NCBI GenBank assembly: GCA_965220745.1
Contig: CBDCQT010000011.1
Location: 224,001 to 288,000 of the forward strand
DNA from: Alphaproteobacteria bacterium
Lineage (GTDB): Bacteria > Pseudomonadota > Alphaproteobacteria > UBA828
DNA: 64,000 nt
Direction of reading: 5' to 3'
Part shown: piece after piece, positions 5,580 through 9,683 of the stretch
Position numbering within the stretch: the stretch's first letter is position 1
Layout: each line of letters begins with the position of its first letter
The notes under the pieces: generated by a model
Database searches by the model: none
What the model was told of the DNA's origin: nothing
Seen by the model: only the letters and a program-made list of their open reading frames with translations
Made by a program: the position numbers and the translations under genes

Positions 5580-5969
5580 TCACTCGGCGCCGGTGGCTTC
5601 CTTGAGATAGGCGATCAGGTTGTCGCGGTCCTTTTCCTTCCTGACCCCCTTAAACGCCATCTTGTTCTTCGGAATGTAACCCTTGGGATCAGCAATATAG
5701 GCTCTGATCGTCTCCTCGTCCCAGACGATTGCCGCGTCCTTCATTGCGTCCGAGTACTTCTTGAAGCCTTCGGCCGTGCCCGAGGTGCGGCCGAAGACGC
5801 CGTGGAGGTTCGGGCCAACCTTGTGCTTCCCGCCTTCCTTGACGGTGTGGCACACCTTGCACTTCTTGAAGACCTTCTTGCCCTTCTTAACATCGGCGGC
5901 AATGGCGGAGGCGCTTGCCGCCATCATGAAGGTGGCGAGGCCAACGGCGAGGACGTGTCGTGCGCGCAC
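5580..5969 (-). CDS. Class I cytochrome c (c2-like), exported
   Basis: Signal peptide, [30 protein letters not shown] start after AAGGAG. Confidence 0.9.
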
Positions 5970-6101
5970 GGGTATCTCCTTAGGTCTGGTCCCGATCATG
6001 CGGTAAACGCGCGAACATAAGCCGGGTCCGCACCCGCGATCAAGCAGGCCATGCAGCCGGTGGCGCGCTGTTCCGGGGAGTAGCGCGCCACCAGCATGTG
6101 G

Positions 6102-7337
6102 CTACTGGACCCGATACTCCTCGTCGAGGAAGAAGCGGCTGTCATAGTCCTCGACGCCAAGGTGGCACTCCGCGCAGAAGACGACGTTCTTGTTGCCCTT
6201 GCCGCCGGTCGTGCCGATGGTCTTGCCGTTCGGCATGATCAGCGTGTAGCGCCAGTCGCCGGTATCAGCGTTGAAGCCGGCTTCCATCTTCTCCATCAGG
6301 AAGAGCGGCCCGGCGCCGATCTTGCCGTTGGGTTTGGCAGTGAAGCTGTCCTTGGCCAACACGGTTCCGACAGGCGCAGGCCCCGCCTCTTCGAAGAGGC
6401 TGTAATTGTCGGCGCCGATGTCGTTGGCGTAGTTGTTGACGTAGCGCGCGCCGTGGGTGTCGGAGACGTAGGGCTGGGCCGCGACGTTCCGCCAATTCTG
6501 GTAGGACGCCGCCCACTGATTGCCCGACTTGGCGTAGCCCTCGGCCATCACCGCACTGATGCAGGCGTAGGCGTCTCGGGCCTCGTCTGCGGTCAACTCC
6601 ACCTCCTCGCCGGCCGCGCAGGGATTGCACGGACCACATGGATTGCACGGGTTACAGGGGCTGCACGGGTTCGCCGCTGCACATGGGTTGCAAGGACCGC
6701 ACGGGTTGCACGGTGCGCAGGCAGCGGCGCATGGATTGCACGGCTCGCACGGGCTGCTTGGACCGCATGGGTTGCAGGCTGCAGCACAGGGATTGCACGG
6801 ATTACAGGGAGCGCACGGTCCGCAAGGGCTACAAGCACTCGCGCAGGGATTGCATGGACCGCAAGGAGCACATGGCCCGCAGGGGCTGCTAGCGGCAGCG
6901 AGGCGCGGCACCACGCAGTCAGCACTGATCGCAGCGCCCGCCGCGCACGGGTTGCAGGCGCCGCACGGCCCGCAGGCTCCGGCGCAGGGATTGCAAGGGT
7001 TGCATGGTCCGCAAGGGCTGCAGGCGCCCGCACAGGGGTTGCAAGGATTACACGGCCCGCACGGTCCACACGCAGACGCGCAGGGATTGCACGGTTCGCA
7101 CGGACTGCATGGTCCACAAGGTCCGCATACCGCCGCGCACGGGTTACACGGACTGCATGGTCCGCACGGATTGCAGGAGGCGAAGAGAAGTACGCCCGGG
7201 TCCTGATGCTGCGGGGTCGCCCCCGGACTCTCGCCGGAGGATGTACCGGCCGTGGCGTGGCCGCCACTGGTGGCGACCGCGAGCCCGATGACCACGGGGA
7301 CCACCGTTCCGGCGAGCAGGGTGTTCGAGCGTGGCAT
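6102..7337 (-). CDS. Cytochrome P460-family protein with long Cys-rich repeat region
   Basis: Signal peptide; CxP/CxA repeats; C-terminal domain [20 protein letters not shown] and terminal CAECH heme motif; GGGAGG RBS. Confidence 0.8.
6618..7175 (-). repeat. Coding tandem repeat of Cys triplets ([15 protein letters not shown]), two blocks
   Basis: About 50 Cys at mostly 3-residue spacing; recurrent GG(G/A)TTGCA on the plus strand. Confidence 0.95.
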
Positions 7338-7469
7338 GTCGGGCCTCCCTTGATGGCGTGATGACGGCGCTCTGAGCGAATTGTCGGCGAGCGCATGGTG
7401 CGGGGCAAACCCCTTCGACTCAAATTTTTGTGATTCCCGTGCCGGGTGAGCGGCAGCTAGGCTGCTGCA

Positions 7470-8345
7470 ATGGTTTTCTCTCGCGGACTCCTTGCGGTCT
7501 GTCTCGCGACCTGTGGCCTGGTCCTCGGGGGCGCTTCATATGCTGGTTCGGTGCCAGTTCCAGTCCTGGCGGAGGTCTCGGCCGGCCCCTTCATCGCGGG
7601 CTCCGACGCGACCGAGCGGGAATACGCCTACCAGCTCGACGAGGCAGCCTACGGCCACTCCCGAACGCGGGAACGCGGCTGGTACGATCGCGAGCGCCCG
7701 CGCGGAACCAAGTCACTGGACAGCTTTTTCATCACGCGCACGCTGATCACCAATGCCCAGTACGCGGCTTTCGTGGATGCCACGGGCCACCGCGTGCCCG
7801 ATGTCGATCCCGAGACCTGGCGCGGCTATCGGCTGATCCACCCCTACGAGCGCACCCGCCGCCACGCGTGGACGGAGGGAGTTCCGCCGCCTGGGCGCGA
7901 AAACCATCCCGTGGTCATGGTCTCGCACGACGACGCCAATGCCTACGCGGCCTGGCTCTCGGCCGAGACCGGGCGCACCTGGCGGCTCCCCACCGAGCTC
8001 GAATGGGAGAAGGCCGCACGCGGCACCGACGGCCGCATCTTCCCCTGGGGCGACACGTACGACCCGGCGCTGCTCAACAGCCACGATTCCGGCCCCTTCG
8101 ACACGCTTCCGGTCGGCAGCTTTCCCGCCGGTGCAAGCCCTTACGGCCTGCTGGATCCGGCAGGCATGGCCTTCGAGTGGACAGCCTCGCCCGGTAATCC
8201 GGGGCGCTTTCTGGTCAAGGGCGGATCATGGGACGACAGCGGCTGCGGCATCTGCCGCCCTGCGGCGCGGCACGGCCGGCCGGCGGACATCAAGCACATC
8301 CTCGTCGGCTTCCGCCTCGTCGTCGATCCGGGCGCGGGGGGTTAG
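7470..8345 (+). CDS. Formylglycine-generating enzyme (SUMF1/EgtB/PvdO) family protein, exported
   Basis: [45 protein letters not shown]-terminal signal-like segment. Confidence 0.85.
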
Positions 8346-8427
8346 CCTCCTCGGTCTGGCAAGAGCAAGCCCGCGGCACTATCTTTTCCTGGCGGCACGG
8401 CCAGCGAACGGGCGACAGAGCGGCAGA

Positions 8428-9189
8428 ATGGCCCAGGCTTCAGCGGCGAAGAACGAGCGGCAGGAGGAGACTCGCCACCTCGACATGGCGACGCAGCCGG
8501 TGAAGCGGCTGCGCATGATGCTCGCCGCCGGCGAGGAGGTGCAGGAGGTCGAGCGGGTGCTCGGCAGGACCGGCGATAATGTGGTGAGCGAGCTACTGCG
8601 CGGGCGCGGGACGTTCTACGAGTGGGACCATTACCCGAAAGGGGACGTCTTCGACGGTCAGAGCCACTCCCAGTATTTCTACCACGCCCATCCCGGCGGC
8701 TTCCGGGACACGGAGCACGGGCATTTCCACACCTTCGTGCGCGCCAAGGGGATGCCGCGCGGCATGAAGCCCATGCGCCGCAAGAAGCGCGACAAGTGGC
8801 CCATGGGTGACAAAGCGCTCACCCACGTCATCGCCATCTCGATGGGGTCGAAGGGTCAGCCTCTCAGGCTTTTCACCACCAACCGCTGGGTCACCGGCGA
8901 GACCTGGTATCGCGCGGATGACGTGGCAAAGGTGATCGGCCGCTTTGTCATCGACCACGCCCGCCCGTCATGGCCGACCAACCGCTGGGTCGGCGCCATG
9001 GTCCGCCTCTTCTGGCCGCAGATCATCCTGCTAGTCAAGGCGCGTGATCAGGTGATCGAGAACTGGGCTGCCCAGAATCCGAAGCAGGATACCCTCGAAG
9101 ATCGCCGCCTCGAGGTCGTCTCGCAGGCCGACGTGGATATCGAGGCCCAGATCGCCGCAGTCAAGGCGGCCCTCGCCGAGAGAATCTGA
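8428..9189 (+). CDS. Conserved His-motif protein (DUF6969-like)
   Basis: EWDHYP..D, QYFYHAH, EHGHFHTF, LFTTNRWVTGETW; family name recalled from memory; start could also be 8485. Confidence 0.6.
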   Translation: MAQASAAKNERQEETRHLDMATQPVKRLRMMLAAGEEVQEVERVLGRTGDNVVSELLRGRGTFYEWDHYPKGDVFDGQSHSQYFYHAHPGGFRDTEHGHFHTFVRAKGMPRGMKPMRRKKRDKWPMGDKALTHVIAISMGSKGQPLRLFTTNRWVTGETWYRADDVAKVIGRFVIDHARPSWPTNRWVGAMVRLFWPQIILLVKARDQVIENWAAQNPKQDTLEDRRLEVVSQADVDIEAQIAAVKAALAERI

Positions 9190-9231
9190 GGCGCAGCCGG
9201 CCCGCCGCTGTCACGGCTCCCGTACCGCAAT

Positions 9232-9259
9232 GAAGAACGCCGCCTCTCCCGAGGCGGCG
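9232..9259 (-). terminator. Probable intrinsic terminator after the Cys-rich peptide gene
   Basis: 9-bp stem CGCCGCCTC/GAGGCGGCG, 4-nt loop, followed by TTCTTC on the minus strand. Confidence 0.55.
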
Positions 9260-9290
9260 CCCTTGGATACCGTTGTCGTTACTCTTGAGC

Positions 9291-9683
9291 TTACTCGGCA
9301 GCACACGGATCGCACGGGTTGCAGGCCGCGCACGGGTCGCACGGATTGCAAGCCTCGCAAGGATTGCAGGCATCCGCGACGATGATGCGCTCGTCCAAGG
9401 AAGATTCGCACGGATTGCAACCGCCGCATGGGTTGCAAGCCTCGCACGGATTGCAGGCCTCGCAAGGGTTGCAGGCATCCGCGACGACGACGCCCTCGTC
9501 CAGGGAAGATTCGCATGGGTTGCAAGCCTCGCACGGGTTACAGGCCCCGCACGGGTTGCACGGATCCTCGTGCGAGTCCGCGACGACGGTCGGCTGCTCC
9601 CCTGCGGACACGGCCGACGGCGCAAGGGCGGCGCCGGCCGCCATGGTAACGATGCTCACGGCGACCACTGTTTCCTTGATCAT
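9291..9683 (-). CDS. 130-aa exported Cys-rich repeat peptide (22 Cys)
   Basis: ATG at 9683 after AGGAGG; signal peptide ending AVSA; three CNPCEA-type cassettes. Confidence 0.85.

Follow-up and report, generated by a model that had tools for sequence, protein, structure and literature searches.

A conserved proteobacterial module of DUF6969, FGE-fold and exported cysteine-repeat proteins, with a tentative role in metal capture

Results

A five-gene block between apt and cysQ

Five genes lie between apt and cysQ in a 64,000-nucleotide window (the whole stretch of DNA analyzed, to which all position numbers refer) of contig CBDCQT010000011.1 from assembly GCA_965220745.1, an Alphaproteobacteria bacterium of UBA828 whose genome (G000) is 4.8 Mb and 99.96% complete. 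They encode an exported cytochrome c, an exported fusion of a cysteine-repeat region to a P460-type heme domain, an exported protein of the FGE fold (SUMF1 family), a histidine-rich DUF6969 protein, and a small exported cysteine-repeat peptide (Table 1). An earlier note on this DNA had proposed a dedicated periplasmic system in which two exported Cys-repeat genes flank the FGE-fold and DUF6969 genes; all five genes were found where it had placed them, in that arrangement and with both repeat genes exported. The comparisons described below establish DUF6969, an FGE-fold subfamily and one or more Sec-exported repeat proteins as a conserved functional module.

Table 1. Features of the block and its borders in window coordinates
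Feature	Position	Strand	Evidence or remark
apt	5014-5550	-	left border of block
Class I cytochrome c, exported (c2/c550-like)	5580-5999	-	PF00034, 8.9e-12
P460/Cys-repeat fusion, exported, 411 amino acids	6102-7337	-	PF16694, 34.7 bits (cut-off 27)
P460/cytochrome c'-beta-like heme domain with CAECH	6138-6506	-	PF16694, residues 278-400
Cys-triplet repeat region of fusion (residues 55-242)	6612-7175	-	Cys spacing runs and DNA arrays
Conserved TCAAATTTTTGTGAT element in divergent intergenic region	7420-7434	.	about 35-50 nucleotides upstream of the FGE-like start codon
Exported FGE-fold protein, distinct subfamily	7470-8345	+	PF03781, 1.1e-43; signal peptide
CGIC pair in loop matching FGE active-site loop	8244-8255	+	C259 and C262, conserved in orthologues
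DUF6969 protein, His-rich	8428-9189	+	PF22308, 3.3e-84
Small exported CNPC-repeat peptide, 130 amino acids (repeats 9297-9560)	9291-9683	-	Cys spacing, Tandem Repeats Finder
cysQ	9855-10631	+	right border of block

Conservation and linkage of the components

Homologous loci were collected in a scan anchored on DUF6969, with one genome per species, which gave at least 566 confirmed loci, and the best 80 of these were examined. These 80 come from Rhodospirillales, Kiloniellales, Thalassospira, Terasakiella, Azospirillum and metagenome-assembled genomes of Beta- and Gammaproteobacteria; cultured carriers are Thalassospira profundimaris WP0211 (L110) and Aestuariispira insulae CECT 8488 (L129). 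Here and below, L-, G- and P-codes label loci, genomes and protein relatives. Related genomes are not independent, so counts are given without a test statistic.

Within the genus, DUF6969 was present in 20 of 20 genomes and the block was syntenic. The P460-repeat fusion, the FGE-like gene and the small peptide were each found at 19 of 20 loci, the misses involving a contig end (L055) and a locus without a detected peptide (L043). Synteny at this level proves little by itself, and the components were anchored separately. Among the 80 wider loci, the FGE-like gene was located directly upstream of DUF6969 on the same strand in 41, and an open reading frame (ORF) with Cys/NPC repeats was located within 3.5 kb of DUF6969 in 33. 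Sorted by content, 22 loci contained both the FGE-like gene and a repeat ORF, 19 the FGE-like gene only, 11 a repeat only, and 28 neither. Repeat ORFs numbered 42 in 496 kb of inner flank versus 1 in 766 kb of outer flank, and that single outer case adjoins a second DUF6969 copy (L065). Three loci (L052-L054) retain DUF6969 between cytochrome c/apt and cysQ and lack both the FGE-like gene and the repeats.

Background frequencies were obtained from a class-wide sample of 301 genomes, evenly drawn from 254 genera. DUF6969 was present in 67 of these genomes and 61 of the genera. An orthologue of the FGE-like gene (E ≤ 1e-50) was identified in 26 genomes, 25 of which carry DUF6969, a count that includes the unpublished genome G268; the exception is G071 (lists compared by hand). 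With the FGE-like gene as the anchor, 25 genomes other than the window's own could be considered; of these, 19 have DUF6969 and 16 a repeat ORF within 1.5 kb. Anchoring on the repeat region (E ≤ 1e-5) gave matches in 38 of the 301 genomes. DUF6969 was carried by 33 of the 38, and in 26 of those 33 the repeat was within 6 kb of it (coordinates compared by hand). The five repeat-only genomes (G065, G242, G276, G286 and G321) are among the weakest matches, with 36-45% identity and, in two cases, in-frame stops. In 41 close relatives, DUF6969 and the repeat occurred together in 24, DUF6969 alone in 4, the repeat alone in 1 (a genome that is 79% complete), and neither in 12.

A dedicated system, as the earlier note conceived it, implies that the FGE-like and His-motif genes co-occur with Cys-triplet ORFs in other genomes. 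They did so, strongly and across families and classes (33/80, 16/25 and 33/38 in the counts above), and they also co-occurred with each other (41/80 and 25/26). The position between apt and cysQ, also described in that note, was correct, but it reflects only order-level synteny around DUF6969.

Exported cysteine-repeat proteins

The fusion protein (6102-7337) begins with a hydrophobic export segment, continues with two blocks of C-x-x triplet repeats and ends in a P460-type heme c domain. It contains 56 Cys, and 42 of the 55 spacings between successive Cys are exactly 3; over residues 55-250 the spacing is 3 in 41 of 52 cases, where 10000 composition-preserving shuffles reach at most 19. Position C+2 is Pro 41 times and Ala 7 times, and the repeat units are of the CNPC, CGPC, CSPC and CAA types. 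A conserved C-V-V-P-R-L spacer parts the two blocks, and the corresponding motif (C.[VI][PKQ]R[LI]) is found in 66 of the 80 P460-type fusions collected. In 58 of 178 proteins the first repeat follows a hydrophobic lead-in of the type P-x-(I/V)-Q-L-A-A-C, a proportion that led to the lead-in being dropped as a defining feature of the repeat proteins. The C-terminal domain belongs to the P460 family by its above-cut-off PF16694 score and CAECH heme site, although its PDB matches are distant (7s5o, 1.1e-4; 7ead, 3e-3). Apart from P460, searches of Pfam and NCBIfam yielded just one sub-threshold MSSP match.

The small peptide (9291-9683) contains 22 Cys, spaced by 3 in 19 of 21 cases, and a signal sequence with an AVSA-type cleavage site (read by eye); it matched no family in Pfam or NCBIfam. 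Its first 27 codons were compared in 22 relatives from the genus and close kin, and 13, 4 and 21 columns were variable at codon positions 1, 2 and 3, respectively, with 18 distinct DNAs encoding 7 distinct proteins. Because variation in the signal-peptide codons is mostly synonymous, the peptide gene is considered a real coding gene. The (C-x-P/C-x-A)n repeat that the earlier note saw in two exported proteins is thus evident in the spacing of both (42/55 and 19/21). About one-third of the repeat residues are Cys and the remainder are G, A, N, P, S, K, D and E, with no aromatics. C-x-P is the commonest triplet in the window repeats, yet there is no Arg at +4. Tandem Repeats Finder identified the underlying DNA arrays at 6643-7113 and 9297-9560.

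Repeat number varies fast in the window and in loci L029-L051: orthologous fusions in the window, L037 and L039 contain 50, 57 and 66 triplets within flanks that are 97-99% identical, and metagenome contigs contain junctions at which 138 and 194 bases of the arrays are missing. Only three ORFs in the whole 4.8-Mb genome satisfy the repeat criterion, namely the fusion, the peptide and a 75-residue paralogue. The last, on another contig, is a CNPC peptide (G000:C3:186806-187261) with the same signal peptide as 9291-9683, surrounded by two integrase-like, one transposase-like, one PIN-like and one SSB-like ORF (read by eye); it is probably a copy on or beside a mobile element.

In other lineages the repeat unit takes the forms CNPCAA, NPCAAK, CGPC and CGACGA. 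The constant elements are a Cys at every third (or sixth) residue and small residues in between, and net charge is variable, with the window peptide being acidic and the NPCAAK types basic. Conservation of the Cys period and the small residues alone suits a chelating or redox array more than it suits a sequence-specific motif. Free repeat peptides with signal peptides account for 41 small relatives, and P460-type fusions (PF16694) for 42 of 70 longer relatives, with more judged alike by eye. All relatives that have a database name, the small peptides included, are called "hypothetical protein".

A second architecture, found in Betaproteobacteria and metagenomes and distinct from the P460 fusions, joins the repeats to a SoxA/TsdA-type heme domain (PF21342; 1.8e-11 in L112, 3.9e-10 in L106 and 1.4e-7 in L116; also P0028). 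In L105, L106, L112 and L116 and in P0001, P0002, P0006 and P0028, this is a single-heme domain with a conserved FCM motif and NPC repeats on both sides. The betaproteobacterial loci L112 and L116 have the NPC-cytochrome, an NPC-peptide and DUF6969, in that order, on one strand and no FGE-like gene. A lipoprotein-like NPC-repeat protein in L178 (5874-6500, minus strand) is joined to a DM13 "electron transfer" domain (PF10517, 1.3e-16) and is unlinked to DUF6969 in its genome. The fusion partners found (P460, SoxA/TsdA-type and DM13) are redox domains; LysM is rarely joined to repeats. Detached P460-repeat paralogues in L179, L180 and L183 adjoin cytochrome c. Proteins from L071, L080, L081, L087 and L102 have CGACGG-type triplets, a conserved N-P-E-A-V...G-L-A-A-G-C lead-in and a C-terminal part without a Pfam match.

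The FGE-like protein

The product of 7470-8345 scores 150 bits against PF03781 (cut-off 23.3) and falls far below all cut-offs for the NCBIfam equivalogs SenA, EgtB, PvdO and GldK. The genes of this type beside DUF6969 represent one tight subfamily, with a signature that includes [VI]CRPAARHxRP...KHIL[IV]GFR (43 sequences). Alignment of these 43 orthologues revealed a CGxC pair, with C259 conserved in 95% and C262 in 98%, in a loop whose counterpart in SUMF2 (PDB 1y4j), as aligned, has no Cys. The CGxC spacing presumably departs from the canonical spacing of the FGE cysteines. These features point to a distinct FGE-fold subfamily with a CGxC site. The nearest solved relative is ToxD (7spq, 2.2e-30); OvsA, CalU17, SUMF2 and true FGEs match at 1e-18 to 1e-15 (true FGEs at about 2e-15), and EgtB, like FGE and OvsA, is among the nearest solved relatives of this fold.

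The genome encodes three Cys-type sulfatases (motifs CNPSR, CSPSR and CTPSR) and three FGE-domain proteins (on C11, C12 and C13), of which only the one in the window has a Cys pair in the active-site loop (read by eye). The C/S-x-P-x-R substrate motif is present in the three sulfatases and absent from the repeats. The logic of FGE, oxidation of Cys in CxPxR, had been carried over to the repeats in the earlier note; this does not transfer directly, given the missing Arg at +4, the CGxC loop and ToxD as the nearest solved structure. A copper nitrite reductase gene, nirK (481 bits), is located on a contig separate from the module (C10:240720-241697), and with the FGE-domain genes on C11, C12 and C13 the FGE-like protein is not a nirK-linked NirV-type accessory.

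The DUF6969 protein

The product of 8428-9189 scores 281.9 bits against PF22308 (cut-off 27), has no NCBIfam match and is encoded by a single-copy gene. It contains an HxH...EHGHFH cluster, and the invariant His, Glu and Asp residues of eight diverse family members include H68, H86, H88, E96, H97, H99 and H133. Among 1.84 billion representative sequences, the family comprises 1229 clusters at E ≤ 1e-3, 912 at 1e-10 and 406 at 1e-30. A profile search of the PDB gave no matches at E ≤ 10, and a search of the ESM Atlas returned DUF6969 clusters alone, with none left once those were skipped. A cupin identity was considered and rejected: hhalign comparison of an 83-sequence DUF6969 alignment (71 used) with an alignment of 11 of the genome's 26 Cupin_2 matches returned a probability of 0.3%, and the protein is not itself among the 26.

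No signal peptide was detected on the DUF6969 protein. In two fused relatives (P0139 and P0199), DUF6969 is followed by about 250 residues of coiled coil, one membrane helix and a bacterial SH3 domain (assigned by eye). The lack of a signal peptide and the N-terminal place in these relatives suggest a cytoplasmic location, so the purely periplasmic system of the earlier note does not stand in that form.

Neighboring genes and flanking DNA

The cytochrome c gene (5580-5999) scores 118 bits against the CycA model, under the cut-off of 240, and its product is likely to be the redox partner of the heme fusion. A cytochrome c neighbors DUF6969 in 24 of the 80 loci; the earlier note's inclusion of it in the system is borne out to the extent that it is a frequent neighbor, but it is not a constant one. 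An exported rhodanese of a single domain, with a CxxGxRS site and in many cases RPCxxC at the C terminus, occurs in 14 of the 80 loci (L070, L071, L078-L081, L085, L089, L091, L096, L100, L103, L119 and L127), 11 of which also hold the FGE-like gene (counted by hand). An automatic cluster had placed this rhodanese in 22 loci, a number inflated by off-frame shadows of repeat genes; 14 are real. The recurrent neighbors of DUF6969 loci include neither sox nor sulfide oxidation genes, nor any sulfur transporter.

The TCAAATTTTTGTGAT element is at least 90% conserved in an alignment of 20 genus-level upstream regions; L047, a locus with a displaced P460 gene, is among them. In the same divergent intergenic region, the genus also conserves a second block, GAATTGTCGGCGAGCGCA (about 7378-7396). 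A promoter scan gave no sigma-70-like sites; five terminator-like sites were found, and shuffles give as many.

Further upstream in the window, a DUF3800 gene (PF12686, 1e-15; 2222-3109) is located in a patch with a G+C fraction of 0.57-0.60, versus about 0.68 around it, and possibly represents acquired DNA. A luciferase-like monooxygenase gene and an F420-dependent NADP oxidoreductase-type gene (3282-4981) are syntenic with apt throughout the genus and appear unrelated to the module.

DNA related or near-identical to window positions 5500-9900 was found in public sponge, coral and marine metagenome runs (20 rows from 11 studies), of which runs X1, X5, X8 and X20 were compared with the window. 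One of them, an RNA-library run (X20), yielded Logan contigs of relatives that match stretches of the P460-repeat gene, of the FGE-like gene and of the DNA toward cysQ at 85-95% similarity. Since the library may contain DNA and the contigs come from relatives, they do not count as evidence for transcription. X20 hardly covered the bins over the peptide repeats, and no inference was drawn from this.

Discussion

The block is tentatively read, at somewhat less than even confidence, as a heme-serviced poly-thiolate capture module for a thiophilic metal, most likely copper, that would be bufferin-like without an MNIO enzyme. The exported repeat tracts would be the working part, forming a dense CxxC thiolate array of metallothionein-like composition that captures a thiophilic metal, most likely Cu(I), in the periplasm. 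The P460-type heme (elsewhere a SoxA/TsdA-type heme or DM13) and the neighboring cytochrome c would supply or remove electrons and so hold either the thiols or the bound metal at a suitable redox state. CGxC presumably takes the place of the FGE copper site in the exported FGE-fold protein, which would act on or with the repeat cysteines. DUF6969 would be a cytoplasmic His-rich metalloprotein partner that may sense, handle or pre-process. The module may thus operate like the bufferin and Buf_EGKCG systems with other enzymes. This reading is favored because of the metallothionein-like composition, the retention of only the Cys period, the identity of FGE as a cuproenzyme and the bufferin precedent.

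Among metallothioneins and copper storage proteins, the comparators are SmtA/BmtA, MymT and Csp1/Csp3. The window repeats resemble them in being about one-third Cys, with CxxC motifs, small or charged residues in between and no aromatics. They differ in being Sec-exported, strictly periodic, far longer and heme-fused, and their metal binding is a prediction; neither window repeat protein matched a metallothionein or Csp model in Pfam or NCBIfam.

The closest precedent is offered by bufferins. Sec-exported Cys-rich precursors have been described that include Buf_EGKCG repeat proteins with up to 58 Cys (PMC12452194), and bufferins are reported to chelate copper (PMC11626156). The former source also describes Buf1|Cytochrom_C|FGE-sulfatase fusions, read there as copper-related, states that FGE is a cuproenzyme (citing Knop et al.), and cites Csp. 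The window proteins and those of PMC12452194 share a Sec signal on Cys precursors and a combination of small peptides with large multi-repeat proteins (up to 58 Cys there, 56 here). The differences are substantial. The window genome contains no MNIO gene (DUF692, PF05114), whereas the Caulobacter control was positive; there is no DUF2282 or EGKCG signature; and the Cys period is 3 residues here versus a 17-residue unit there. The partners here are a free FGE-fold protein and DUF6969, and both modification and copper binding are putative. A bufferin system proper is excluded by the absence of an MNIO gene from a 99.96% complete genome.

Several observations weigh against metal capture. Cysteines exported to an oxidizing periplasm may simply form disulfides. 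Metal pumps, chaperones and metal regulators are not among the 30 commonest neighbor clusters, and no metal genes were seen around the cultured carriers L129 and L110, where the neighbors are PrkA, a thioesterase, MEKHLA, a protoglobin methyl-accepting chemotaxis protein, a TRAP transporter, Usp and DUF2336. With 28 of 80 DUF6969 loci holding neither the FGE-like gene nor repeats, and 19 holding the FGE-like gene without repeats, the enzymes do not strictly need a neighboring repeat gene. The exported rhodanese (14/80) and the SoxA/TsdA-type fusions point equally to sulfur chemistry. More than one of the readings considered here may hold at once, as in bufferins, which are modified and also bind metal.

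A possible but doubtful alternative is maturation resembling that of peptides made on ribosomes and modified after translation (RiPPs), in which the FGE-fold protein in the periplasm, DUF6969 in the cytoplasm before export, or both would convert the cysteines covalently, to formylglycine, cross-links or other products. FGE, EgtB and OvsA, the characterized nearest FGE-fold relatives, act on sulfur or selenium compounds. A repetitive, substrate-like polypeptide is tightly linked to genes for two enzyme-like proteins, the active-site loop retains its CGxC pair across orthologues, and C-x-P is the commonest triplet (Pro at C+2 for 41 of 56 Cys), in a genome where one sulfatase uses CNPSR. As with FGE and its substrates, the PF03781-fold protein has a Cys pair in the equivalent loop and is exported like its candidate substrates. 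The repeats, though, lack the Arg of C-x-P-x-R, and the CGACGA and NPCAAK variants lack any C-x-P. The window gene also travels with DUF6969 and not with sulfatases, its loop has CGxC, presumably not the canonical spacing, and ToxD is nearer. Because the repeats lack the substrate motif, they and the FGE-like protein are not a demonstrated FGE-sulfatase pair. The C-x-V-P-R-L spacer, present in 66 of 80 P460 fusions, and the lead-in, in 58 of 178 proteins, count in favor of maturation, but the lead-in is missing from about two-thirds of the proteins. Bufferins (PMC11626156) provide a precedent for precursors with Sec signals that are modified before export. Against maturation, half of the enzyme loci have no nearby repeat gene, no RiPP recognition element-like or other known RiPP enzyme is nearby, and the genome has no MNIO.

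On a bolder reading, which is on balance unlikely, the repeats might represent a new class of ribosomally made, Sec-exported poly-Cys polymer, served by a maturation pair consisting of a copper-type FGE-fold oxidase outside the cytoplasm and His-rich DUF6969 inside it. The cysteines would be converted en bloc (to formylglycine or cross-links, for instance) or would form a one-dimensional metal-thiolate chain; tethered to P460, SoxA-type or DM13 redox domains, the chain would serve as an extracytoplasmic conduit for electrons or metal.

A sulfur carrier or relay is quite unlikely. The Cys arrays would carry sulfane sulfur or thiosulfonate in the manner of SoxY, with the heme loading them oxidatively and cytochrome c taking the electrons, as SoxAX loads a carrier Cys. 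The resemblance to SoxAX/SoxYZ and TsdA is that of a c-type heme enzyme with a flexible Cys arm, and some relatives, in Betaproteobacteria and metagenomes, fuse the repeats on both sides of the SoxA/TsdA-type domain (PF21342); the exported rhodanese in 14 of 80 loci, 11 with the FGE-like gene, is also in keeping with such a relay. However, most fusions, including that of the window, are P460-type, a domain not known for sulfur chemistry, and the arm has dozens of Cys versus one. No sox, sulfide oxidation or sulfur transporter genes recur as neighbors, and the adjacency of cysQ is plain order-level synteny.

A periplasmic thiol-disulfide buffer or scavenger, in which stacked CxxC pairs would switch between dithiol and disulfide, or become S-nitrosated, so as to absorb oxidants or NO and be recharged through the heme domain and cytochrome c, is improbable. 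The repeats hold many copies of CxxC (CGPC included), the classical redox-active dithiol motif, and the fusion partners found are all redox domains. Characterized P460 and cytochrome c'-beta domains bind NO or hydroxylamine; a Lys-heme cross-link separates the former from the latter. The window fusion resembles both in its above-cut-off PF16694 match and C-terminal CxxCH, but its similarity to solved members is distant (1.1e-4) and it has a 200-residue Cys-repeat N-terminal extension. The link to NO suggested in the earlier note is putative. A nitrite reductase gene (481 bits) is present in the genome, but nirK is on another contig with no FGE-domain gene beside it. A buffer would leave the FGE-like protein and DUF6969 without a clear role, and the free peptides carry no heme domain.

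The absence of any joint function, with the FGE-like protein as an ordinary sulfatase maturase, DUF6969 unrelated and the repeats as flexible linkers or tethers of periplasmic cytochromes, is very improbable: the genome does have three Cys-type sulfatases and a loop Cys pair only in the window's FGE-domain gene, and L052-L054 keep DUF6969 without the FGE-like gene and repeats, but phyletic and positional coupling extends over about 25 genera (25/26, 19/25 and 16/25), repeat ORFs are essentially confined to DUF6969 neighborhoods, free repeat peptides link nothing, and the Cys period is under selection while linker residues vary. An ordinary sulfatase-maturing role for the FGE-like protein is conceivable but leaves its coupling to DUF6969 and the repeats unexplained.

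Literature searches found no described pathway of this composition, in agreement with the earlier note. No literature on DUF6969 was found, and searches for NPCAAK, CNPCAA and NPCAA repeats, or for links of P460 to cysteine-rich tracts or formylglycine, returned nothing relevant; as far as these searches show, a Cys-repeat N-terminal extension of P460 is undescribed. If the metal-capture reading is correct, hundreds of proteobacterial species, in sponge- and coral-associated, marine and iron-oxidizing lineages, would possess an overlooked extracytoplasmic system whose working part is a protein that is one-third Cys and wired to heme. The idea of exported Cys-based metallophores, known from bufferins, would be extended to a family with different enzymes. 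DUF6969 (1229 clusters) would gain its first functional context, and there would be a new FGE-fold subfamily with CGxC and a new use for P460-type and SoxA-type heme domains. Should poly-Cys maturation or a metal-thiolate conduit prove true, the chemistry and architecture would be without a described counterpart.

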